The notes under the pieces were generated by a model. That model saw only the letters and a program-made list of their open reading frames with translations. It was not told the DNA's origin and searched no databases. Shown here piece after piece: positions 1,443 through 20,787 of a stretch of 64,000 nt of DNA; positions within the stretch are counted from its first letter, which is position 1, and each line of letters opens with the position of its first letter. Position numbers and translations under genes: made by a program. The stretch lies in NCBI RefSeq assembly GCF_050410795.1, contig NZ_CP191258.1, positions 1,443,118 through 1,507,117 on the forward strand, given 5' to 3'. Source of the stretch: Fontivita pretiosa. Its GTDB lineage: Bacteria; Planctomycetota; Phycisphaerae; Tepidisphaerales; Tepidisphaeraceae.

Positions 1443-2598
1443 ATGATGATTCACGAAAACCTCGCCCAGAGCATCGAAAACCTCAGCGCCCGGATGATCG
1501 CCATCCGGGACTCTCTTTGACTTGCCGGCCAAACAGGTCCGCAGAAAGCAGTTGGAAGAGCGGATGGGCCAGCCGGGGTTTTGGGATGACCCGCAGGCCG
1601 CCCGCCAGATCGTCCAGGAACTGAAGATTCTCAAGGCGCAGATCGATCCGGTGATGTCGGTATTGCGCGAGTTGGAGGACGTGCGCGCGCTGTATGAGCT
1701 TGGTCTGGAGGCCGGGGATCAGCAGGCGATCCGGGAGGCCGACGAGCAGCTTGCCCGGCTGGAGAAAAAGGCCGAGCGGGTCGAGCTTCAGGCACTGCTG
1801 GACGGCCCCAACGATCCGTTGAACTGCTTTGTGACCATCCAGGCCGGCGCCGGTGGCACCGAGGCGCAGGACTGGGCCGAGATGCTCGCGCGGATGTACC
1901 TGTATTACTGGCAAAAGCGGGGATGGGACGTCTCGGAAGTCGACCGGCAGTACGGAGAGCAGGCCGGGATCAAAAGCGCCACTTTCCACGTGAAGGGAGA
2001 CTACGCCTTCGGGTACATGCGTTGTGAGGCCGGGGTTCATCGACTGGTACGCCCAAGCCCGTTCAATGCCCAGCACAAGCGACAGACCAGCTTCGCCGCG
2101 GTGGACGTGGTGCCCGAGTTCGAGGAGGTGGCCGGGCAGGAGGAAATCCCCGAGCAAGACCTGGAGATCACGGCTTTCGTGCGTGCCAGCGGCCCGGGCG
2201 GGCAGAACGTGAACAAGGTGGCGTCGGCGGTGCGGATCGTGCACAAGCCTACGGGGATCACCGTCACCTGCTCGGTGGAACGCAGCCAGCAGCAGAACAA
2301 GCGCCTGGCGCTGTCGATCATCAAGGGCAAGCTGGAGCTTCTTGAGCAGGCCAAGCGGGACGAAGAGCTGCGGAAGATCGTTGGGGAGAAGGGGGCGATT
2401 GCGTGGGGCAACCAGATTCGCTCTTATATCCTTGATGACAAAAGAGTTAAGGATGTAAGAACCGGGGTGGAAACGAGGGATGTGGAAAGCGTGCTGGATC
2501 GGGGCGAGCTGGACATGTTTATTGACGCGGAGTTGCGTCGTCGCAAGGCCGCCGCCGCCAAGAAGCAAACCGCGGCGGTGCCGTCGGGGAGTAGTTAA
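1443..2598 (+). CDS. prfB: Peptide chain release factor 2, with programmed +1 ribosomal frameshift
   Basis: Frame 0 ([25 protein letters not shown]) ends at CTT-TGA-C (1515-1521) after 25 codons, as in E. coli RF2. The +1 frame continues DLPAKQ...; GGQ motif ([10 protein letters not shown]) and SPF-type motif present. Confidence 0.9.
1512..1521 (+). promoter_or_regulatory. RF2 autoregulatory +1 frameshift site (CUU UGA C) with weak upstream SD-like GGGA
   Basis: Sequence tctCTTTGAC at codon 25/26 of prfB, directly visible. Confidence 0.85.
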
Positions 2599-2791
2599 TA
2601 TAACATCTTGATTCAAGCTGTCTTACAGCACATCCAACTGGGCCCTCAAGCTTTGTGCCTGTACGTCCGATAAAGCCTGGTACATGGATCGTCCGCCGGT
2701 TCGGCCGGGAAACAGCCGTCCTGCAGACTGCTGAGCAAACCTCCATGGCTTTGACGGGCGCGGGCATGATGCTTTAGACTACCGGGTCACG

Positions 2792-3673
2792 ATGATCGTT
2801 GATTGTCATACCCATATCTGGCAGTCCCCGGATCAGCTCGGACAAATGGATCTGGGCGACCTGCCGCGCACGACCCGGTCGCGCACGTCGCGGCTGACGC
2901 CCGGCGGGCGAACCATCTGGCGGACCATTCCCGCCGCCGACCCGGAACACCACTGGGCTCAGTCCGGCATGGTGGACAAGTCGATCGTGCTGGCGTTCAA
3001 GAGCCGGTATCTAAAGGCGGAGATCCCCAACCGCTTCGTCGCCGAGTACGTCAGCCGAAACCCCGATAAGCTCATCGGCTTTGCCGGCATCGATCCGACC
3101 GAACGCGGCGCGGTGGATGAGCTGCACGTGGCACATGATGAGCTTCGGCTGCGCGGGATCACCATGTCGCCGGCCAACCAGGACTTCCACCCCGCCGATT
3201 CCCGGGCCATGAAGGTCTACGCCGAAGCTGAAAGGCTCGGCATGCCGATCCTGTTTCACCCCGCCGGGCAGTTCACCGAAGCCAGCAAGCTGGAGTACGC
3301 CCGCCCCTACCTGCTCGACGAGATCGCCCGGGCGTTTCCCCGGCTGCGGATGATCATCGCCCAGATGGGCCAGCCCTGGATCGACGAGACCATTGTTCTG
3401 CTGGGCAAGCATTCAAACGTTTACGCGGACGTCTCGGGGCTTCTGTCGCGTCCGTGGCAGGCGTACAACGCGCTGGTCAGCGCCAACCAGTATGGCGTGA
3501 TCGACAAGCTGCTGTTCGGCTCCGACTTCCCCTACACCAGCGCCACCGAGTGCATCGAAACCCTCTACAGCCTCAATCAGATGGCCCAGGGGACCAACCT
3601 GCCGGTCGTCCCGCGCGAAAGCCTCCGCGGCATCGTCGAACGCGACGCCATCAGCCTGCTCGGAATCGAATGA
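2792..3673 (+). CDS. Amidohydrolase-family (TIM-barrel metal-dependent hydrolase) protein
   Basis: N-terminal DCHTHIW metal-binding motif; ~290 aa with an internal His motif and C-terminal Asp. Confidence 0.75.
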   Translation: MIVDCHTHIWQSPDQLGQMDLGDLPRTTRSRTSRLTPGGRTIWRTIPAADPEHHWAQSGMVDKSIVLAFKSRYLKAEIPNRFVAEYVSRNPDKLIGFAGIDPTERGAVDELHVAHDELRLRGITMSPANQDFHPADSRAMKVYAEAERLGMPILFHPAGQFTEASKLEYARPYLLDEIARAFPRLRMIIAQMGQPWIDETIVLLGKHSNVYADVSGLLSRPWQAYNALVSANQYGVIDKLLFGSDFPYTSATECIETLYSLNQMAQGTNLPVVPRESLRGIVERDAISLLGIE

Positions 3674-4407
3674 ATCCCGACCACGGAATAAGCCAACGGG
3701 CAAAAGTCGCCCGGCTCGCCCAGCACCTCGCAAGATCGGCGGCCTTGCTTTTGCCTTTTGCTCTTTTTCTGCTGTTGCCCCTGGCCTGCTCCTCGGGGCC
3801 GGCCTGGCTGACTTTCCAATCCACGGAGTCTGACCGTCAATATTCCCAGAAGTTTTCCCGCGCTTATTTTGCGCGTGAGCCCGGCGGGGAATATCAGGCG
3901 GTACTGATCGAAGACGGTCTGGCGCCGGCCCCGGAAGACAAGAAGCCTGCCGGCCCGCTGCACGCCGCCTCCACCGCGCCCCTCAGCCAGGTCGTATACC
4001 TGCGGGTCCTGTGGCAACCGTTGCGAGGGGTCAAGCCGGACACGCCCTCGGCCACCAACGCCGTGATCGACTGGTACGTCCGCTCCAACGATGCCGCCAG
4101 CCGTGACGATCAGCTTCACTATCGCGGCGCGGGATTTGTCCGCATCGACGATTCCGGACAGGAGGCGCGATTCGTTATCCGCAATGCCCGAGTGCAACTG
4201 GCCGAAAGCTCGGGCAGGCTTCAGGATCCTCTTGGGCAGTCGCTGCTGACCGGTTCGTTCACCGCGACGAGAAACGATGCCCTGGTCGCCGCGACGCTGG
4301 AGGCGCTGCGCCCGCAGTCGTCCCCGCAACACGCCGACCAATCCGTTGTTCCTGCCGACTCGGCCGCCCACCAGGGTCCGCCCCCGCGCGGCCCAACCGG
4401 GCCATGA
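3670..4407 (+). CDS. Hypothetical lipoprotein
   Basis: ATGA start/stop overlap with the upstream gene. The N-terminus has a hydrophobic signal and lipobox-like LPLACSSG; the upstream part of the tool ORF overlaps the amidohydrolase in another frame. Confidence 0.55.
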   Translation: MNPDHGISQRAKVARLAQHLARSAALLLPFALFLLLPLACSSGPAWLTFQSTESDRQYSQKFSRAYFAREPGGEYQAVLIEDGLAPAPEDKKPAGPLHAASTAPLSQVVYLRVLWQPLRGVKPDTPSATNAVIDWYVRSNDAASRDDQLHYRGAGFVRIDDSGQEARFVIRNARVQLAESSGRLQDPLGQSLLTGSFTATRNDALVAATLEALRPQSSPQHADQSVVPADSAAHQGPPPRGPTGP

Positions 4408-4509
4408 CGCAAACGATTTGTCCCATCCATCGAGCCGGCGGCGGCTTTGGTTCCGACATTGCCCGGCTTTTATATCCCCGCTGAAGCTGGGCACGGATAA
4501 GATGATGGG

Positions 4510-6156
4510 GTGATGTCCGCGACGGAATTGAAGGACAACGAGCTGGCGCGCCGCCAGGGCGATGCGGTGATCTGCCGACCCCAGCCGCTGCGGCTGCGAT
4601 GGGTCTTCGATCAGCTTGCCACCGCCGACGCCCACACGCTGGAGGCCCGCTTCGCCGCCAGCGTTCGCATTGCCGACACCGACGCCGACCGGAAGATGTT
4701 CTCTGAGCTGCTGCTGTGCGATCGGCAGTCGGTCACCGCCCAGATGCTCATCGAGCATTTTGCTCCCCCGTTGCGTGCAGCATTGACGGGGCTGGCCATG
4801 CGCTGCCGGGCCGCCGATGTTGTCGGCAACCCGGATCAGCAACACACCTGGATCGCCGAGCTGCTCCAGGCCGCCAGGCCCGCCGCCTTTGCCGCCGGGC
4901 TGGAGCTTTTGCCCCCTTACCAGCTCGATCTTCAAAGCCCCACGCTCCAGCGGCAGCGAATCCAGGAATTGGCCCGCGCTCAGGCCGAGCAGCACGCCGC
5001 CGGACAGCTTCAGCACCTTCAACGCGCCGCCGAACTGCTCCAGCAGTTCCAGCAGATGCGACAGGCGGCGCCGCAGCTTTCGGCCGGCGCGCTGCTCGAA
5101 CGGCTCAATCCGGCCGACCGCGGGCCGACCCTCCAGGCGCTGCTGCTGGCCTCGGGAAGTGAAACGCGACTGCACCGGCAGACGCTGTGGTGCGTGGCCG
5201 GCGGCACGCTGGTGCGCATCGATCCGGGCAACTCGCCGCAGCCCGAGCTGATCCAGCTTCCCGCCACGCTGGGGCCGCTGCGCAGTGTTCAGCCCGCTGT
5301 CGTGAACGAGCAACGCGTCCTGCTGATCGGCGCGCAAGGCGGGGTGATGGTCGTATCACGGGAAGATCCCGAGCGCATCATCGAGTCCTTCGCCTGCCCG
5401 TCGCTCCAATCGCAGCACGGGTTCAACCGAGTGGTGGTGATCGACGACACGATCTGCGCATCACACGCCGAAGCGGGGATCGTGCGATGGAGTCGCGATC
5501 GCCACGATGCGCCGACGGCGTGCTACGCCGAGCGCGATCCGGACAGCCAACTCGTGGCGCAAGGCACCACCATCACCCAGGGCGCATCCTCGGGCATGGG
5601 CATGACCTCAATCCAGGCTCGCCTTACCGGCCCGCGGCATCTTCAGGCGCTGGATCAGACGCACCTGATTTATGCCGTTGGAAGTCGCATCATCCTGCGG
5701 CACGACGATCGGGCTGTGGTTTTGCCGTCGCACTCCGACGCCGAGATCATTGCGATCCTGCCCACCTCGGCCCAGCACATGCTGGCGATTCATCAGGATG
5801 GGACGATTGTGAGCATCGACCGGACGACGCGACAGGTCAGCGTCAGCATGCGTCGCCCCGGGCGATTCACCGCCGCCGCCACCATGCCGTGGCTGGGTGA
5901 CGTGCGTGTGTTGCTGGCTACAGACGACGGCCCGATCGACTGCATCGGCCTGGACGACCCACTGCTCAGCGAATACCTCAGCCCCTATCGGGGCCTGAAG
6001 ATTCTGGCCGCCACCGCAAGCCTTATCGCCGCCGTCACGCCTGATCGCCAACGTGTGGTGCTGTGGCAGGCGTGGGAGACGCAGCGTCCGCTGTGCGAGG
6101 TGCACGTGACCGGACGTGCCAGGCACCGCATTGCGGATATCGATTTTGACGCCTAG
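4510..6156 (+). CDS. Hypothetical protein (548 aa)
   Basis: Long ORF with balanced composition; the opposing 586-aa minus ORF is R/G-rich and looks like an antisense artefact. Confidence 0.5.
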   Translation: MMSATELKDNELARRQGDAVICRPQPLRLRWVFDQLATADAHTLEARFAASVRIADTDADRKMFSELLLCDRQSVTAQMLIEHFAPPLRAALTGLAMRCRAADVVGNPDQQHTWIAELLQAARPAAFAAGLELLPPYQLDLQSPTLQRQRIQELARAQAEQHAAGQLQHLQRAAELLQQFQQMRQAAPQLSAGALLERLNPADRGPTLQALLLASGSETRLHRQTLWCVAGGTLVRIDPGNSPQPELIQLPATLGPLRSVQPAVVNEQRVLLIGAQGGVMVVSREDPERIIESFACPSLQSQHGFNRVVVIDDTICASHAEAGIVRWSRDRHDAPTACYAERDPDSQLVAQGTTITQGASSGMGMTSIQARLTGPRHLQALDQTHLIYAVGSRIILRHDDRAVVLPSHSDAEIIAILPTSAQHMLAIHQDGTIVSIDRTTRQVSVSMRRPGRFTAAATMPWLGDVRVLLATDDGPIDCIGLDDPLLSEYLSPYRGLKILAATASLIAAVTPDRQRVVLWQAWETQRPLCEVHVTGRARHRIADIDFDA

Positions 6157-6375
6157 CCGCTGCTGCACCGCGCGCACTCGCGCACCACAAGGCAAGGATT
6201 CACGGAAGAACTCGGAGATGCGAGGTCCAATGGCCATGTCAGGCGCGTCCGGCTCGTGGGCTGACCGCCTGCACGGGCTGCTCGCCTGCGCGGACGGAAC
6301 GCCCGCGACACGAAAATAAACAGCCGGCGTTTCGTGCACTGTTCGCGGCTCTGCGCCCTGCTGCGGGGAATCAGA

Positions 6376-7644
6376 TCAAGCGAAGCTGTACGTGCCGCTG
6401 AGCGTTCGCCACTCCTCGATGCTGGTGATCCCCTGTTCGACCTTCAGCCATCCGTCGTGCGCCAGGCTGCGCAGGCCGCGCGACGTGGCGCCGGCGCGCA
6501 GTGCACGCTCATCGGCGTGATGCAGAATCGCGTCATAGTCGGCATCCACCAGTCGCCAGACCTCAAAGACCCCGATGCGACCGTCATAACCGAGATATCG
6601 GCAATCGACGCATCCGGTGGCGGTCCAGGTCTGCTGCGCCGTGGCCGGCAGCCCAAGCGACTGAAGCAACTGCCGCTCGCTTTCCTCCAGGCTGCGCTGC
6701 TTTCTGCACCGGCGACACAGACGTTTGACCAGCCGCTGGGCCACCACCATCCGCAGTGAGCTGGCGATCTGGTGGTCGGCCAGACCGAAGTTTCGCAGCG
6801 CCGTGATCGCGCTGATCGCATCGGGCGCATGAATTGTGCTCATCAGCACGCGTCCGCTGCCGGATGCTTCCATGGCGGCATCGGCGGCTTCGGCGTCGCG
6901 GATCTCGCCCAGCAGCAGGTAATCCGGATCGGCGCGCAGCATGCCCCGCAGTCCCTGCGCGAATGACAGATCATGCCGCCGGTCCACCTGCGTCTGCACG
7001 ATCCCCTCGATGCTGTATTCCACAGGATCCTCGATCGTCACCACGCATCGATCCCGAAGCCGCAGCTCATGCAGGATCGCGTACAGCGTCGTGGTCTTGC
7101 CGCTGCCCGTCGGACCGGCCACCAGAAACATCCCGCAGATGTTCTTCAGCCACTGCTCGATCTTGTCCCGCTGCTCGTCGGTGAAACCCAGCTCGTCCAG
7201 ATGCTGGAGCACGCGCGAGCGATCCAGCAGGCGGATGGACAGCTTCTCCCCGGCGACCGAGGGCAGCGCCGCGATCCGCAGATCGATCTCGCGGCCATCG
7301 ACGATCTGCGTCAGCCGCGAATCCGCCGGGCGGAATCGATCCGCCGAATCCAGCCCCGAGATCGCCTTGAAGTGCCGCAGCAGCCGGCCTCCCTGTGCCC
7401 GCGAGAGAATCGCCACATCCAGCAGATCGCCATCGATGCGAAAGCGGATTCGGCTGCTCTGGCCCTGTGGATCCAGATGAATATCGCTGGCGTGATGTCG
7501 CAGCGCGTCGGCCAGCAGACGGCTGGCCAGCAGGTTGGTCGATTCCGCCGTTTCCGCCAGCGCCTCGGCCTCCTGTCGCAGCAGTTCCTGGCGGAACGAA
7601 GTGCTCAACTCATTGCGCACCGGTCTGATGAATTCGTTGGGCAT
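6376..7644 (-). CDS. GspE/PilB-family secretion ATPase, short form lacking the N1 domain
   Basis: Walker A AGPTGSGKTT; Asp/His boxes; C-terminal tetracysteine CRRC...CVDC zinc motif typical of GspE/PilB. Confidence 0.85.
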   Translation of the reverse strand: MPNEFIRPVRNELSTSFRQELLRQEAEALAETAESTNLLASRLLADALRHHASDIHLDPQGQSSRIRFRIDGDLLDVAILSRAQGGRLLRHFKAISGLDSADRFRPADSRLTQIVDGREIDLRIAALPSVAGEKLSIRLLDRSRVLQHLDELGFTDEQRDKIEQWLKNICGMFLVAGPTGSGKTTTLYAILHELRLRDRCVVTIEDPVEYSIEGIVQTQVDRRHDLSFAQGLRGMLRADPDYLLLGEIRDAEAADAAMEASGSGRVLMSTIHAPDAISAITALRNFGLADHQIASSLRMVVAQRLVKRLCRRCRKQRSLEESERQLLQSLGLPATAQQTWTATGCVDCRYLGYDGRIGVFEVWRLVDADYDAILHHADERALRAGATSRGLRSLAHDGWLKVEQGITSIEEWRTLSGTYSFA

Positions 7645-14100: not shown

Positions 14101-14742
14101 ATGCTGCTCAAACGTATTGCCATCGTTGTGTCGCTGGTGCTGGCCGGGGGCGTGGCGCTGCTGTGGGGCCGCAGCTACGCCGTCGGCGACCGCTACCGAT
14201 GGGTACGCATTCAGGATGCGCCCTCGGGGCGATTCGTGATGAGCAGCGGGGGCTTCGCCACCGGGATCGGCGGCATCCGGTTCGTCTACGAAGCCGTGGA
14301 CAGCACCGACCCCAATGTAATCGATCGGACCCGACGACGGCTGGACGGGATCAGCCGCTGGGCGCCGCCAGGATACCGCACCATCGACCCGCCTCGTTAC
14401 CCGATGCGCGAGGCGAGCAACGATTCGGTCCTGGCGTCGCTGGGGTTTCATTTCGATCACTGGAGCAACAGTTCGCCGACCAGCCGCCAACGACAATTGA
14501 CTGTCACGGTGCCGTTCTGGGCCATCTTCCTGGCGCTGATCGGCTACCCCCTGGGGCGATACGTGGCGGGGGTGGTGCGGCGTCAAAGGGAGGATCGCCT
14601 GGCGTTGGGACTGTGCCCACGATGCGGCGTGCCGTTGAACGATGCCTTGTCGCGATGTCCCGGATGCGATCGCCCGATTCCACGTCCCAACACGACCGAA
14701 AACGCATTGAGCTCCGCCAGCGAAGCTCGCTCGGCGGTGTGA
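14101..14742 (+). CDS. Hypothetical membrane protein with C-terminal zinc ribbon
   Basis: Two hydrophobic segments and CPRCG...CPGCD near the C-terminus. Confidence 0.5.
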   Translation: MLLKRIAIVVSLVLAGGVALLWGRSYAVGDRYRWVRIQDAPSGRFVMSSGGFATGIGGIRFVYEAVDSTDPNVIDRTRRRLDGISRWAPPGYRTIDPPRYPMREASNDSVLASLGFHFDHWSNSSPTSRQRQLTVTVPFWAIFLALIGYPLGRYVAGVVRRQREDRLALGLCPRCGVPLNDALSRCPGCDRPIPRPNTTENALSSASEARSAV

Positions 14743-14761: not shown

Positions 14762-15104
14762 TTGCCGACACCGGATCGAATGCTGCTGATCGTCGCGATT
14801 CTCATCGCCGCAACCGTTCCGGCCGTGTGGGCGACCGGCCGAATCCTGAGCATCGATCATGCCCCGCCGCTGCTGCGACGCCTGGCCGGCTGGTTCGTGC
14901 CCTGGGGGGCATGCGTGTGGCTGGCCTGGTCGCTGATGTGGCAGGCGAACCTTCCCCGGCTGGACTGGAACGCCTGCCGACTGGCGCCGGTTGTGGGCAT
15001 GCTGTACGGCTACAGGCTGTACAACGTCCCGGAGCAGGGTCCGATCAGCACACACATCTATGGCCCGGTGTGGGCGCTGGCAATGCTGCCGGCGGCGAAC
15101 GTTT
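14762..15104 (+). pseudogene. N-terminal fragment of a polytopic membrane protein, truncated at the left edge of the tandem array
   Basis: Hydrophobic N-terminal ~115 codons. The reading frame then runs out of frame through repeat-derived sequence (R/D/E-rich, junk-like). Confidence 0.35.
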
Positions 15105-15380
15105 CCCGATGTCGTGATCGCCGGGCAGAGCATGATCGAAATCAAGCGAGTACAATCGCTGCAACTGACCGACCAGTTCAGAGCACAGATCCAGGCGGCG
15201 AAAGAGCATGGATTGAACTATCGGATCATCGTTTCGGATACCCTGGTTGGAGATCCGCATCCAGACCTTACGGGTCTGATGACGGATCTGCTCTTGAACC
15301 GGGCCAACGGAAAGACCGCGAGCATCGAAAAGTACGACAGCATTCAGAGGAAGCTGGTGAAGATATGGCCCTTGGAATAG
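15093..15380 (+). pseudogene. 5'-truncated copy (copy 1) of the 157-aa PD-(D/E)xK-like gene
   Basis: Homology to copies 2 and 3 begins at ...gcggcgaacgtttcccgatg. It retains RRTFPDVVIAGQSMIEIK...PLE but lacks the N-terminal ~60 codons. Confidence 0.5.
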
Positions 15381-16438
15381 GCATGGCATACCTGAGTTTT
15401 GTTGCTGAAGAGATGCTATCAGACGACGCGCTCGTTCAGCTCACGCTCGACTTTGCGGCGCGATTCCCACGCCTGGCTCCCCAGGAGATCGGGTTGAAGC
15501 CGGAAGCGGTCAGATTCGATTCCGCCAGGCTCAAATCGGTGCTGACCCCGGAGCGACTGGAGTTCGGTTGGAGTTGGAGACGAAGTAGACCTGACATAGA
15601 AGGTCGCAGATCGCGCGACCCCCGTGATGGGGACGAGAATGAGTACCTCTCCATCGACTTGGATCATGTCGAGCAGCAGGAACTGCTCGAGGTGGCCGAG
15701 TGGTATGCCCAGCGGGTGCGACTGGCATACGCTCACATCCATGTCCTGTCCGAGCCGGAGGCGCAGCATGCGGCCGCGCGAGGTTTGGCCTTCCTGGGAA
15801 TATCGCCTCAGGCTCACAAAGATCCACAGGCATGGAGCTACTACCCGCGGAATCTGAATCAGCTCTGCAACGGCATTCCCGACCTGTGCTGGGTGACGGT
15901 CTTCGGGCCGATGTACGTCCGTCACTTTGGTCGCGAGCGGCTGCTGTCGGCCCCGGCGCCGGTCGTGCGCGAGATCGCGACGGATACCATCCTGCTGCAA
16001 CTGAGCCACAGCTACACTGAGGTCGCCACGGACTGGGAGAAGTTCAATGCCACGCGCGAGGCGGTCATCGACCATCTCGGCCGCGAGTGCTTCAACCGCA
16101 GTGCACGCCCAGCGATCCCCCACCCAGCGGACAGCTGCGACGCACGGCTCGTGGATGTGGATCCGCGTTTCATCCCGCGGGAGTTGATGCCCCGGCGACA
16201 GAAGTTTCTCGCCGCCGCCTCGACTCCGCCCGAAGCCCTGCCCCCGCCGCTGACTAGCCTTGAGGAAATGCTCGCGCACGTTGGCCGACTGAAGGTGATA
16301 ACGATCATGGGTTCGCGCGTCCTGATCGATAAGGAGCGAAAGGAGCTGATCGGGTTCGCCGATCCGAAACTGGCCGAGGAATGGATCGACAAGCTCATCG
16401 CCGCCGGGGTGGAGGCGCAGGGGACGAGTCAACGGTGA
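15365..16438 (+). CDS. 357-aa hypothetical protein, cassette copy 1 (candidate immunity/partner)
   Basis: Near-identical to 16915..17988. Contains a local -1/+1 compensated frameshift (FNRSARPAIPHPADSC vs FNRVRTPSDPPPSGQR) relative to copies 2 and 3. Confidence 0.6.
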   Translation: MALGIGMAYLSFVAEEMLSDDALVQLTLDFAARFPRLAPQEIGLKPEAVRFDSARLKSVLTPERLEFGWSWRRSRPDIEGRRSRDPRDGDENEYLSIDLDHVEQQELLEVAEWYAQRVRLAYAHIHVLSEPEAQHAAARGLAFLGISPQAHKDPQAWSYYPRNLNQLCNGIPDLCWVTVFGPMYVRHFGRERLLSAPAPVVREIATDTILLQLSHSYTEVATDWEKFNATREAVIDHLGRECFNRSARPAIPHPADSCDARLVDVDPRFIPRELMPRRQKFLAAASTPPEALPPPLTSLEEMLAHVGRLKVITIMGSRVLIDKERKELIGFADPKLAEEWIDKLIAAGVEAQGTSQR

Positions 16439-16456
16439 CGACGTCGCTGGACTGCC

Positions 16457-16930
16457 GTGCGAGTCCGTTGGGCGCCACCCGGCCGCCTTCTGGCTGCCAA
16501 GCGGGCGGCCCAAATGATCCAGAACGCGGCCGCGGGGATGAAGTTCCAGAATGAGATGCGACTGCTTTTGCGGGAGGTGGAGCAACTGGACGTGCCGGCG
16601 AAAAAGCGATTCTTCGACGTGGTCCTCGCTACGGGCAGGGCGCGGCGAACGTTTCCCGATGTCGTGATCGCCGGGCAGAGCATGATCGAAATCAAGCGAG
16701 TACAATCGCTGCAACTGACCGACCAGTTCAGAGCACAGATCCAGGCGGCGAAAGAGCATGGATTGAATTATCGGATCATCGTTTCGGATACCCTGGTTGG
16801 AGATCCGGATCCACGCCTTACGCGTCTGATGACGGATCTGCTCTTGAACCGGGCCAACGGAAAGACCGCGAGCATCGAAAAGTACGACAGCATTCAGAGG
16901 AAGCTGGTGAAGATATGGCCCTTGGAATAG
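16457..16930 (+). CDS. 157-aa PD-(D/E)xK nuclease-fold-like small protein, cassette copy 2 (candidate toxin)
   Basis: FFDVVL...FPDVVIAG-x5-IEIK resembles an Hjc/YraN-type PD-(D/E)xK signature; overlaps the downstream gene by 16 nt. The true start may be an internal ATG (MIQNAAAG or MKFQNE). Confidence 0.55.
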   Translation: MRVRWAPPGRLLAAKRAAQMIQNAAAGMKFQNEMRLLLREVEQLDVPAKKRFFDVVLATGRARRTFPDVVIAGQSMIEIKRVQSLQLTDQFRAQIQAAKEHGLNYRIIVSDTLVGDPDPRLTRLMTDLLLNRANGKTASIEKYDSIQRKLVKIWPLE

Positions 16931-17988
16931 GCATGGCATACCTGAGTTTTGTTGCTGAAGAGATGCTATCAGACGACGCGCTCGTTCAGCTCACGCTCGA
17001 CTTTGCGGCGCGATTCCCACGCCTGGCTCCCCAGGAGATCGGGTTGAAGCCGGAAGCGGTCAGATTCGATTCCGCCAGGCTCAAATCGGTGCTGACCCCG
17101 GAGCGACTGGAGTTCGGTTGGAGTTGGAGACGAAGTAGACCTGACATAGAAGGTCGCAGATCGCGCGACCCCCGTGATGGGGACGAGAATGAGTACCTCT
17201 CCATCGACTTGGATCATGTCGAGCAGCAGGAACTGCTCGAGGTGGCCGAGTGGTATGCCCAGCGGGTGCGACTGGCATACGCTCACATCCATGTCCTGTC
17301 CGAGCCGGAGGCGCAGCATGCGGCCGCGCGAGGTTTGGCCTTCCTGGGAATATCGCCTCAGGCTCACAAAGATCCCCAGGCATGGAGCTACTACCCGCGG
17401 AATCTGAATCAGCTCTGCAACGGCATTCCCGACCTGTGCTGGGTGACGGTCTTCGGGCCGATGTACGTCCGTCACTTTGGTCGCGAGCGGCTGCTGTCGG
17501 CCCCGGCGCCGGTCGTGCGCGAGATCGCGACGGATACCATCCTGCTGCAACTGAGCCACAGCTACACTGAGGTCGCCACGGACTGGGAGAAGTTCAATGC
17601 CACGCGCGAGGCGGTCATCGACCATCTCGGCCGCGAGTGCTTCAACCGCGTGCGCACGCCCAGCGATCCCCCACCCAGCGGACAGCGCGACGCACGGCTC
17701 GTGGATGTGGATCCGCGTTTCATCCCGCGGGAGTTGATGCCCCGGCGACAGAAGTTTCTCGCCGCCGCCTCGACTCCGCCCGAAGCCCTGCCCCCGCCGC
17801 TGACTAGCCTTGAGGAAATGCTCGCGCACGTTGGCCGACTGAAGGTGATAACGATCATGGGTTCGCGCGTCCTGATCGATAAGGAGCGAAAGGAGCTGAT
17901 CGGGTTCGCCGATCCGAAACTGGCCGAGGAATGGATCGACAAGCTCATCGCCGCCGGGGTGGAGGCGCAGGGGACGAGTCAACGGTGA
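16915..17988 (+). CDS. 357-aa hypothetical protein, cassette copy 2
   Basis: Identical domain architecture to copies 1 and 3; protein-like composition, whereas the opposing 506-aa minus ORF is R/G/P-rich low complexity. Confidence 0.6.
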   Translation: MALGIGMAYLSFVAEEMLSDDALVQLTLDFAARFPRLAPQEIGLKPEAVRFDSARLKSVLTPERLEFGWSWRRSRPDIEGRRSRDPRDGDENEYLSIDLDHVEQQELLEVAEWYAQRVRLAYAHIHVLSEPEAQHAAARGLAFLGISPQAHKDPQAWSYYPRNLNQLCNGIPDLCWVTVFGPMYVRHFGRERLLSAPAPVVREIATDTILLQLSHSYTEVATDWEKFNATREAVIDHLGRECFNRVRTPSDPPPSGQRDARLVDVDPRFIPRELMPRRQKFLAAASTPPEALPPPLTSLEEMLAHVGRLKVITIMGSRVLIDKERKELIGFADPKLAEEWIDKLIAAGVEAQGTSQR

Positions 17989-18006
17989 CGACGTCGCTGG
18001 ACTGCC

Positions 18007-18480
18007 GTGCGAGTCCGTTGGGCGCCACCCGGCCGCCTTCTGGCTGCCAAGCGGGCGGCCCAAATGATCCAGAACGCGGCCGCGGGGATGAAGTTCCAGA
18101 ATGAGATGCGACTGCTTTTGCGGGAGGTGGAGCAACTGGACGTGCCGGCGAAAAAGCGATTCTTCGACGTGGTCCTCGCTACGGGCAGGGCGCGGCGAAC
18201 GTTTCCCGATGTCGTGATCGCCGGGCAGAGCATGATCGAAATCAAGCGAGTACAATCGCTGCAACTGACCGACCAGTTCAGAGCACAGATCCAGGCGGCG
18301 AAAGAGCATGGATTGAATTATCGGATCATCGTTTCGGATACCCTGGTTGGAGATCCGCATCCAGACCTTACGGGTCTGATGAGGGACCTGCTCTTGAACC
18401 GGGCCAACGGAAAGACCGCGAGCATCGAAAAGTACGACAGCATTCAGAGGAAGCTGGTGAAGATATGGCCCTTGGAATAG
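18007..18480 (+). CDS. 157-aa PD-(D/E)xK-like small protein, cassette copy 3
   Basis: Identical to copy 2 except the C-terminal DPHPDLTGLMRD segment. Confidence 0.55.
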   Translation: MRVRWAPPGRLLAAKRAAQMIQNAAAGMKFQNEMRLLLREVEQLDVPAKKRFFDVVLATGRARRTFPDVVIAGQSMIEIKRVQSLQLTDQFRAQIQAAKEHGLNYRIIVSDTLVGDPHPDLTGLMRDLLLNRANGKTASIEKYDSIQRKLVKIWPLE

Positions 18481-19538
18481 GCATGGCATACCTGAGTTTT
18501 GTTGCTGAAGAGATGCTATCAGACGACGCGCTCGTTCAGCTCACGCTCGACTTTGCGGCGCGATTCCCACGCCTGGCTCCCCAGGAGATCGGCCTGAAGC
18601 CCAACACGGTCAAAGTTGACCCCCGGACGCTCAAAGCGGCGCTGACACCGGAGCGGCTGGATGACGGCTGGCATTGGAGGCGACGTAAGCCTGACGTACG
18701 AGGATGCAGGTCACGCTTTCGCAGTGAGGGCGACGAGCATGAGTACCTCTCCATCGACTTGGATCATGTCGAGCAGCAGGAACTGCTCGAGGTGGCCGAG
18801 TGGTATGCCCAGCGGGTGCGACTGGCATACGCTCACATCCATGTCCTGTCCGAGCCGGAGGCGCAGCATGCGGCCGCGCGAGGTTTGGCCTTCCTGGGAA
18901 TATCGCCTCAGGCTCACAAAGATCCCCAGGCATGGAGCTACTACCCGCGGAATCTGAATGAGCTCTGCAACGGCATTCCCGACCTGTGCTGGGTGACGGT
19001 CTTCGGGCCGATGTACGTTCGGCACTTCGGTCGCGATCGGCTGCTGTCGGCCCCGGCGCCGGTCGTGCGCGAGATCGCGACGGATACCATCCTGCTGCAA
19101 CTGAGCCACAGCTACACTGAGGTCGCCACGGACTGGGAGAAGTTCAATGCCACGCGCGAGGCGGTCATCGACCATCTCGGCCGCGAGTGCTTCAACCGCG
19201 TGCGCACGCCCAGCGATCCCCCACCCAGCGGACAGCGCGACGCACGGCTCGTGGATGTGGATCCGCGTTTCATCCCGCGGGAGTTGATGCCCCGGCGACA
19301 GAAGTTTCTCGCCGCCGCCTCGACTCCGCCCGAAGCCCTGCCCCCGCCGCTGACTAGCCTTGAGGAAATGCTCGCGCACGTTGGCCGACTGAAGGTGATA
19401 ACGATCATGGGTTCGCGCGTCCTGATCGATAAGGAGCGAAAGGAGATGATCGGTTTTGCCGATCCGAAACTGGCCGAGGAATGGATCGACAAGCTCATCG
19501 CCGCAGGCGTGGAGGCGCAGGGGACGAGTCAACGGTGA
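18465..19538 (+). CDS. 357-aa hypothetical protein, cassette copy 3 (mosaic variant)
   Basis: ~99% identical to copy 2, except a ~160-bp patch (codons ~45-95) that is strongly divergent at both synonymous and non-synonymous sites. Confidence 0.6.
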   Translation: MALGIGMAYLSFVAEEMLSDDALVQLTLDFAARFPRLAPQEIGLKPNTVKVDPRTLKAALTPERLDDGWHWRRRKPDVRGCRSRFRSEGDEHEYLSIDLDHVEQQELLEVAEWYAQRVRLAYAHIHVLSEPEAQHAAARGLAFLGISPQAHKDPQAWSYYPRNLNELCNGIPDLCWVTVFGPMYVRHFGRDRLLSAPAPVVREIATDTILLQLSHSYTEVATDWEKFNATREAVIDHLGRECFNRVRTPSDPPPSGQRDARLVDVDPRFIPRELMPRRQKFLAAASTPPEALPPPLTSLEEMLAHVGRLKVITIMGSRVLIDKERKEMIGFADPKLAEEWIDKLIAAGVEAQGTSQR

Positions 19539-19687
19539 CGCGGTGCAAGGGCAAAGCCGCTGCGGTGCAGGAGATGAGAGTTCCGTGCGACCGAGGCCCT
19601 CGCCGGCTGGCTCATCGTGCGACGTTGCAGCAGAACCATCTGCTGATTCTGCCCTCTGCCCTCATCCCTCTGCCCTCATCCTTGTAT

Positions 19688-20737
19688 TCACTGCGTCGGA
19701 TCCACCCGATGCGTGATGCTTCCCGGCGGCGGACAGACGAATTCCCTGATCGGCCGCGGCTCGAGCTTCGCCGGGTCGATCACCACATGCCCGATCGTCC
19801 GCCGCTTGAACGTGTAGGCGATGTGCACCAGTCCGTCGGCCGTCTGGATCACGCACGGATACGAGTATTGTCCGGGCGGCTCGTCCTGGATGATCGCGGC
19901 GGCTTGCCAGGTTCTTCCGTCGCGCGAGATCGCCACGTTCAGCGGATACCGCACCTTCTCCAGATTCGAGTGGTTGTAGACCAGCAGGTGCGTCCCGTCG
20001 CGCAGCGTCGTCGCGTCGATCCCGGAGTTGCAGTTGGGCAGGTCGGTCAGCGCCAGCGGCGACCACGTCGCCCCGCCGTCGCGCGACCAGGTCTCGCAGA
20101 TCCGCCCCACCGTCGTCCGCCCCAGCGCCTGAAGAACCGTCTGCGAATGGATCAGGATCGTCGGCTGCGTTGCCTTGGGGATGATCGAGCGGTCCTGCTC
20201 GACCCAGGGCATCGCCGACCACGTGTTGCCGTTGTCTGTGCTGCACTCAAAATACAGGCGCCAACCGGATTCCGATTCAACGCTCGTCGGGACCAGGATC
20301 ATGCTGCTCTCAAGCTGCACCGGCTTGTTCTTCGCCGGGCCGATGAGGTTTGGCCCGACGCGCCGGGCGGCGCTCCACGTGTGCCCTTCGTCGCCGGATC
20401 GTTTGAGCATGCCCCACCACTTCGACGGCGACGGCCCGACCTTGTAGAACAGCAGCATCGGGCCATTGCGGGGCTTGAACAGCACCGGGTTCCAGCAGGG
20501 ATAGCGCGAGCCATCCGGCTCGATTCCCTCGGCGGTCAGCACCGGCGCCGACCATCGCCCGTCGCGCAGGTGGCAGGTCCAGATCGACGCATCGGGCTTG
20601 CCCTCGCCGCTGCCACCAAAAAACGCCGCCACGACATGCCCGGGCGCCGGCTCGCATAGCGTCGCCGCATGACACGACGGAAACGGCGCCGTGCCGATCT
20701 CGTAGATGAACCCGCTGTGGATGATGCCTGCTTTCAT
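19688..20737 (-). CDS. BNR/Asp-box repeat sialidase-like (GH33-like) beta-propeller protein
   Basis: Four Asp-box motifs SxDxGxTW (SGDEGHTW, STDNGNTW, SRDGGATW, SRDGRTW); start at MKAGII. Confidence 0.8.
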   Translation of the reverse strand: MKAGIIHSGFIYEIGTAPFPSCHAATLCEPAPGHVVAAFFGGSGEGKPDASIWTCHLRDGRWSAPVLTAEGIEPDGSRYPCWNPVLFKPRNGPMLLFYKVGPSPSKWWGMLKRSGDEGHTWSAARRVGPNLIGPAKNKPVQLESSMILVPTSVESESGWRLYFECSTDNGNTWSAMPWVEQDRSIIPKATQPTILIHSQTVLQALGRTTVGRICETWSRDGGATWSPLALTDLPNCNSGIDATTLRDGTHLLVYNHSNLEKVRYPLNVAISRDGRTWQAAAIIQDEPPGQYSYPCVIQTADGLVHIAYTFKRRTIGHVVIDPAKLEPRPIREFVCPPPGSITHRVDPTQ

Positions 20738-20787
20738 TGCTGAACAAACTTCGCACACCCTCTGCGCAATATCGTCAAGACACGCAA

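Follow-up and report, generated by a model that had tools for sequence, protein, structure and literature searches.

The 64-kb stretch of Fontivita pretiosa DNA analyzed here, 64,000 nucleotides (nt) in all and called the window below, contains at 15092-19540 a tandem array in which a small gene is followed, unit after unit, by a gene for a protein of 357 amino acids (aa). This array is probably the remnant of a polymorphic-toxin locus that has degenerated to tandem orphan nuclease tips and their immunity genes. In related loci, the domain encoded by the small gene is the C-terminus of large multidomain proteins. As such, the array is what is left of a system of a known kind and does not represent a new one.

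Tandem array and duplication joint

Base-by-base comparison of the units shows a direct repeat whose period is 1550 nt exactly, with its left boundary at 15092 and its right boundary at 19540. The 1550-bp spacing and the gene starts given in the initial annotation, which had been made from the sequence alone, are exact both in the repeat comparison and in the list of open reading frames (ORFs), and the tandem triplication that it described is real, with the qualification that the 4449-nt (4.45-kb) block amounts to 2.87 units and not to three full ones. Each unit has one small gene and one 357-aa gene, and in every unit the immunity-type gene comes after the toxin tip (Table 1). The homology begins abruptly at codon 62 of the small gene, which agrees with the 5' truncation described earlier, the flanking ORF fragment being 110 codons long and not 115 as then stated. 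At the other side, the repeat stops 2 nt past the stop codon of the third 357-aa gene, and this right end is broken as well, a feature that had been missed. The overlap of 16 nt reported between the small gene and the 357-aa gene holds if translation begins with the ATG at 16915; with the NCBI start at 16933 (351 aa) there is a gap of 2 nt and no overlap. The array is already in the public record, where NCBI lists six consecutive genes, XTR23737-XTR23742. The products of the first two are hypothetical proteins of 106 and 351 aa, and these are followed by a "putative toxin" of 138 aa, a 351-aa protein, a second 138-aa "putative toxin", and a third 351-aa protein. The small genes are therefore already labelled as putative toxins by NCBI.

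Both junctions between units have the same composition. After the stop codon of the immunity-type gene come the same 49 nt, a 49-mer that occurs only at 16439 and 17989 and is the same as the native sequence 3' of the immunity gene in L006, a metagenomic homolog. From 16488 (and 18038) onwards the sequence is that of the interior of a toxin gene, as found in the full-length gene on the metagenomic contig L002, to which long stretches are near-identical at the nucleotide level. Given that the 3' flank of an immunity gene is joined here to the interior of a toxin gene, the array carries the signature of an in-situ tandem duplication, in which the duplicated segment would have had one end inside the toxin gene and the other 49 nt beyond the immunity gene. 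That the second joint is identical agrees with an unequal crossover that yielded the third copy, and the mapped joint lends support to the recent duplication or unequal crossover proposed from the start. The 4449-nt block has illegitimate ends on both sides: its first unit sets in only at codon 62 of the toxin, and 47 of the 49 flank nucleotides are missing from its third.

The copies had been taken as homogeneous, which is not borne out, given that they are mosaics with what appear to be old allelic patches. The 98-99% identity previously assigned to them holds outside these patches and fails within them. Units 1 and 2 are 97.5% identical in an ungapped comparison and 99.5% identical outside a patch of 37 nt, and for units 2 and 3 the identity is 96.1% overall and 98.9% once a patch of 146 nt, itself only 70% identical, is set aside. 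Indeed, the 90 variable sites show strong clustering in patches, and identical tracts between units reach 408 nt. The 37-nt patch is a compensated frameshift in immunity copy 1 (+A, -GC, +T), which changes VRTPSDPPPSGQR to SARPAIPHPADSC and falls in a predicted disordered linker, where the predicted local distance difference test (pLDDT) is <50 for residues 244-266. The restoration of the frame within 37 nt suggests selection for the reading frame, and all three immunity ORFs are intact.

In the 146-nt patch, 44 of the 146 nucleotides (30%) differ between immunity copies 3 and 2, with a synonymous divergence (dS) of 0.54 and a nonsynonymous divergence (dN) of 0.27, while the remainder of the immunity gene has a dS of 0.036 and a dN of 0.004. 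Given that the unit-3 allele of this patch is found nearly unchanged in L006, the comparison indicates that the patch is probably an old allele, imported or kept by recombination, and not the outcome of fast mutation after the duplication. Toxin residues ~115-127 also vary between units and among relatives. A co-variation of this toxin patch with the immunity patch (residues ~44-97) across units and relatives was considered and rejected, as no simple match was found: units 1 and 3 have the toxin patch in common and differ in the immunity patch, and in L006 a third toxin allele is paired with the unit-3 immunity patch.

Near-identical repeats of 1.55 kb are hard to assemble, and the array would be an artefact if the true locus had a single copy, or some other number, that was turned into the present one from mis-assembled repeats or strain variants. 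This is very improbable in view of the fact that each of the three units has a sequence of its own (patches A, B, and D) in the reported genome of an isolate, that both inter-unit joints are identical and can be interpreted biologically, that the record is a single contig of 5,538,121 bp from a named species, and that a related array is present in locus L001.

Tox-REase-7 tips and their full-length relatives

The small protein matches the Pfam model of Tox-REase-7 (PF15649) with 28.1 bits (E value of 2.5e-6), against a gathering threshold of 25 bits, and its residues 48-111 align to profile positions 15-76 of 84. In the alignment of its few homologs, E40, D68, E78-x-K80, Q90, and Q94 are invariant, and the D, ExK, and Q residues among them fit the published signature of Tox-REase-7, composed of GxxxE, IxD, ExK, and Q (Zhang et al. 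2012, PMC3482391), with F-P-D68, E78-I-K80, and Q90/Q94 as the residues of the window at the signature. With PF15649 the small protein shares a score above the threshold, the D, ExK, and Q residues, and the C-terminal placement in multidomain proteins of relatives. This supports the assignment of the small protein, from its sequence, as a predicted orphan PD-(D/E)xK nuclease domain of the Tox-REase-7 family without a delivery region. The earlier guess of a PD-(D/E)xK-like protein was thus correct, as seen from the score and from the invariant E40, D68, and E78-x-K80. Neither protein had been matched to a named family in that annotation, whereas the small protein does belong to one, Tox-REase-7.

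Other approaches contributed little to this assignment. The structure prediction of the small protein was too poor to assign a fold, and the scans of both proteins against NCBIfam and PADLOC gave nothing useful, with no match in PADLOC-DB at E <=1 for either. When single proteins, or the profiles A2 and A6, were searched against the sequences of solved structures, the matches did not exceed chance level. Members of the subfamily are highly uncommon: 4 clusters were found among 5.8 billion proteins, in a search that missed the 1071-aa toxin of L002 and whose silence on a full-length toxin of F. pretiosa is not evidence of absence.

The copies of F. pretiosa differ from their relatives in having Q where these have the E of GxxxE. 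In both complete copies of the window (16535-16555 and 18085-18105; codons 27-33) the stretch reads G27-M-K-F-Q31 (CAG), while L002, P0011, and L016 have E; this stretch lies outside the profile-aligned part, and its correspondence to GxxxE is not certain. In L002, the catalytic lysine of ExK is replaced at 3676-3690 (toxin residues 993-997), which gives IEIM (ATG) against the IEIK (AAG) of every other homolog. Judged from sequence, Q31 in the window copies may be an attenuating E-to-Q change, and the exchange of the lysine for a methionine in L002 may likewise weaken the enzyme.

The existence of complete toxins with this tip is clear from the related loci. In L002, a protein of 1071 aa, with an fn3 domain (E value of 1e-5) and a weak dockerin-like match, has a C-terminus 79% identical to the small protein, and a homolog of the 357-aa protein (86% identical) is encoded 2 nt downstream. 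This full-length toxin confirms the idea that the small genes are orphan C-terminal modules of a toxin. In L016, a protein of 1236 aa ends in a Tox-REase-7 domain (27.4 bits) that is 31% identical to the window toxin and is preceded by a weak PT-TG-like pre-toxin segment, and its gene overlaps that of a 364-aa homolog of the partner. Toxin-domain sequence is found directly 5' of the partner gene in L002, L016, L015, L004, and L006, all of them from other organisms, down to a toxin identity of 31%; in L004, L006, and L015 it consists of toxin 3' ends or remnants that adjoin the partner gene. The toxin/immunity pairing advanced in the initial annotation is upheld by this adjacency in five loci and by the predicted fold of the partner, which matches immunity proteins. 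L003 has only a 75-nt toxin remnant beside the partner gene, and L014 has the partner alone. L001 is a second, independent array, which runs from the end of an immunity gene through an IS200/605 transposase and a 190-aa toxin fragment to the start of the next immunity gene.

When the 64-kb window was compared with the toxin of L002, only the last 166 residues of the latter (906-1071) were matched. Upstream of the array, there is no full-length toxin gene in the window, the left neighbors being the truncated host ORF and the gene of a 213-aa zinc-ribbon protein at 14101-14742. To the right of the array, a sialidase-like gene lies at 19688-20758. A profile search with the toxin alignment found no match in a collection of contigs that evidently does not contain the source genome, and the immunity alignment found one distant proteobacterial locus only in the same collection. 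A scan of viral contigs gave no match.

The related loci show further features of their own. In L016, two C-terminal domains of Fe/Mn superoxide dismutase (PF02777, E value of 7.6e-51) stand before the pre-toxin segment and the nuclease (2300-6010). An RRLLS motif is found in the N-terminal part of the toxins of both L002 and L016, and that of L016 has a weak Planc_extracel match. Downstream of the pair in L002, positions 5129-6994 encode a 477-aa protein with a Calx-beta match followed by a 137-aa ORF, which may together be a further toxin/immunity cassette, of another type. The transposase gene of L001, at 348-1109, is of the IS200/IS605 Y1 type and lies between two toxin/immunity cassettes. 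In L003, the region 5' of the 75-nt remnant (2100-2280) contains a perfect 17-nt inverted repeat, GGGAGTCTTTTCCTACA and TGTAGGAAAAGACTCCC, together with two copies of the direct repeat GTCCCGCATAAGGGGTCG, and these repeats may be traces left by the removal of the toxin.

The 357-aa partner as an immunity-type protein

The 357-aa protein has no sequence match in Pfam, NCBIfam, PADLOC, or the PDB. Its close relatives are very rare (seven matches), and those with a taxonomic label belong to Tepidisphaeraceae or Phycisphaerae. A profile made from the close relatives finds at least 894 cluster representatives, mostly of ~250 aa, that match residues 8-245. Ten members of this family were scanned against Pfam and NCBIfam and matched no model, and none of those looked up has a functional name. 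The family, with proteins P0012-P0158, is defined by the N-terminal ~240 residues of the 357-aa protein and has the conserved core PDLxW-x-TVFGP-x-Y...FGR-x-RLLS-x-PA.

The predicted fold of the partner matches that of the Imm52/TsiV immunity proteins (Foldseek match to 7drg_B, E value of 1.5e-5). Weak, sub-threshold Pfam matches to TsiV were obtained for 4 of 68 diverse distant members, with a best E value of 0.0011, and TsiV was the most recurrent family. The partner adjoins a PD-(D/E)xK toxin in the window and in L002, L004, L006, L015, and L016, and distant members belong to poly-immunity loci that follow genes, or gene fragments, of Rhs-type and CdiA-like toxins; a homolog lies directly behind another toxin-immunity pair in L013 and L005. 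Given the fold match, the conserved adjacency to the toxin, and the toxin context of the distant members, the data support a predicted immunity role for the 357-aa protein.

The VRR-Nuc effector TseV has PA0821 as its immunity protein (PMC9635880), and the TOX-REase effector TseT has TsiT (PMC10281587). TsiV (PF11876, formerly DUF3396; PA0821, PDB 7DRG) and TsiT/Imm52 (PA3908, PDB 9OZ0) are T6SS (type VI secretion system) immunity proteins against PD-(D/E)xK effectors. In contrast, the protein of the window has no sequence match to them, its cognate toxin is a Tox-REase-7 and not a VRR-Nuc or Tox-REase-5, and no T6SS context was seen. With respect to Tox-REase-7, planctomycetes are already among the known hosts, and ImmHEAT, Imm23, and Imm54 are its known immunity partners (Zhang et al. 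2012, PMC3482391), whereas the partner found here has a predicted Imm52/TsiV-like fold. As far as found, this is apparently the first pairing of the 357-aa family with Tox-REase-7 toxins.

The tight coupling of the two genes, whether by the 16-nt overlap or the 2-nt gap, the very high identity of the units with their long identical tracts, and the intact ORFs of units 2 and 3 could also be understood if the nuclease and the 357-aa protein were co-expressed inside the cell like a toxin-antitoxin pair, with the amplification kept by dosage selection or post-segregational killing. Nonetheless, this is a decidedly unlikely explanation, given that the domain is, in relatives, the tip of proteins of 1071 and 1236 aa with fn3, dockerin-like, and weak planctomycete extracellular-motif matches, that the partner lies downstream, is bigger than the toxin, and has no Pfam match, so that no DNA-binding domain is detected, that PADLOC gives no match, and that L003 and L014 are immunity-only loci. 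A type II toxin-antitoxin module was considered as a candidate in its own right and rejected on account of the downstream position of the partner, its 357 aa without any Pfam match, and the fusion of the toxin domain to large proteins in relatives.

Origin, role, and flanks of the array

The history that would account for a degenerate polymorphic-toxin locus starts from an ancestral form such as that seen in the relatives, i.e., a large multidomain and presumably secreted protein ending in the Tox-REase-7 nuclease, with a cognate immunity product that presumably binds and blocks the nuclease. A segment of 1550 nt, starting ~10 codons 5' of the NCBI start of the small gene, would have been duplicated in tandem, and an unequal crossover between the first two copies would have given the third. 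The duplication would have created orphan tips with a complete nuclease domain and no delivery region, each before an intact immunity gene. Later, both ends of the block would have been lost by illegitimate recombination, either through deletion of the main toxin gene, which would then be absent from the rest of the genome, or through relocation of the whole block. What is left would most probably be three immunity genes of two allelic types that guard against related toxins of neighbors, and the two orphan tips would be inert leftovers or spare parts for recombination.

A more far-reaching version of this history is possible, though it falls somewhat short of being probable. According to it, the array would have caught the origin of orphan modules in the act, by in-situ duplication inside a toxin gene followed by patch-wise replacement of immunity segments by old circulating alleles, and the 357-aa protein would represent a large unnamed immunity family with a TsiV/Imm52 fold and a previously unrecorded partner of Tox-REase-7.

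Some observations weigh against the reading of the array as a degenerate toxin locus with immunity genes. The 5.54-Mb genome may contain, outside the window, a full-length toxin that ends in this tip. A search of Pfam at E <=10 with nine close members of the partner family gave no match, including to Imm52 (PF15579) and TsiV, and at the level of sequence the 357-aa protein is not a member of either family. The structural model of the partner is of moderate quality, with a pLDDT of 72, a predicted template modeling (TM) score of 0.61, and Foldseek TM scores of 0.38-0.50. A scan for promoters and terminators found no promoter-like sites for the orphan tips, the scan being uninformative.

Orphan modules of CdiA and Rhs systems are described as recombinable spare parts. 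Recombination with standalone cassettes has been described (Zhang et al. 2012, PMC3482391). The cassettes of the window could likewise be functional spare parts for the switching of toxin/immunity alleles, if a full-length toxin elsewhere in F. pretiosa shared the region 5' of the tip. The description of CdiA and Rhs orphan modules in these terms speaks for such a reservoir, as do the complete nuclease domains of the tips and their near-identical nucleotide stretches to the full-length gene of L002. Nonetheless, the orphans begin only ~10 codons 5' of the NCBI start, without the conserved PT-TG-like pre-toxin segment that would provide upstream homology, the 64-kb window has no homology to the N-terminal part of the toxin, and the copies are nearly one allele, with little to be gained from switching. 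For these reasons, a reservoir is an unlikely explanation, and the array is better regarded as a degenerate locus.

As such, it resembles the orphan arrays of CdiA-CT/CdiI and Rhs (Zhang et al. 2012, PMC3482391) in that the tips have no delivery region and are each followed by their own immunity gene, and in that large multidomain proteins of relatives end in the domain. It differs from them in being made of near-identical tandem duplicates (96-99.5%) with a mapped joint, where those have heterogeneous modules, in having no preceding full-length toxin gene and both ends broken, and in its host, a planctomycete of the Phycisphaerae.

Arrays of orphan immunity genes that remain after loss or displacement of the effector are known from the auxiliary T6SS clusters of Vibrio cholerae and from the acquired interbacterial defence clusters of Bacteroidales. 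The array of the window is similar to these in that several immunity copies or alleles are kept without a deliverable toxin, with L003 and L014 as immunity-only counterparts, whereas it has kept toxin tips with complete nuclease domains and consists of recent duplicates and not of serial acquisitions.

While current ideas are not overturned by this locus, it extends polymorphic-toxin biology to the little-studied thermophilic Phycisphaerae and points to a widespread family of immunity-type domains without a Pfam or NCBIfam model. It would also be a clean, base-resolved case of orphan toxin modules born by tandem duplication and not by horizontal acquisition. In practical terms, it yields a useful annotation and a putative toxin/immunity pair that varies naturally at positions that are candidates for specificity and catalysis.

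The coordinates of the array and of its edges are given in Table 1. The ORF at the left flank has one strong hydrophobic helix (residues 5-25) and a GC content at third codon positions (GC3) of 0.83, which is host-like, the cassette genes having a GC3 of 0.73-0.75 versus 0.83-0.85 for host genes. No homolog of this truncated membrane ORF was detectable in the search.

Table 1. Features of the array and its edges, in window coordinates.
Feature	Coordinates	Strand	Remarks
Host membrane-protein-like ORF, 5' fragment, 110 codons, cut by the array	14762..15091	+	GC by codon position 0.65/0.51/0.83; repeat homology from 15092
Unit 1 toxin fragment, 5'-truncated, codons 62-157	15092..15380	+	D68 and ExK kept; lacks the N-terminal helix with E40; NCBI 106-aa hypothetical XTR23737
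Immunity-type gene copy 1, 357 aa	15365..16438	+	Compensated frameshift at 16100-16136, 13 residues changed
Native 3' flank of immunity gene, 49 nt; joint 16487/16488	16439..16487	+	Identical to L006 flank
Orphan toxin C-terminal module copy 2, 157-aa ORF	16457..16930	+	NCBI start 16514 = 138 aa; XTR23739 "putative toxin"; Tox-REase-7 (predicted), without delivery region
Immunity-type gene copy 2, 357 aa	16915..17988	+	Predicted N-terminal Imm52/TsiV-like fold and small C-terminal alpha/beta domain
49-nt flank, second copy; joint 18037/18038	17989..18037	+	
Orphan toxin C-terminal module copy 3	18007..18480	+	From M20 identical to P0008 / XTR23741 "putative toxin"
Immunity-type gene copy 3	18465..19538	+	Divergent allele patch 18593-18738 (residues ~44-97); from M7 identical to P0001 / XTR23742
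Array right end 19540/19541	19539..19541	.	Third unit lacks 47 of 49 flank nt

Two further observations concern the edges of the array. From 14762 to 16438 there is an uninterrupted frame of 558 codons, made up of the membrane ORF fragment, 91 out-of-frame codons of the toxin fragment, and immunity copy 1, and a membrane-anchored fusion product from this frame is formally possible. To the right, ~110 nt from the end of the array, a short tandem repeat is present at 19652-19681, with 2.1 copies of CCCTCTGCCCTCAT.

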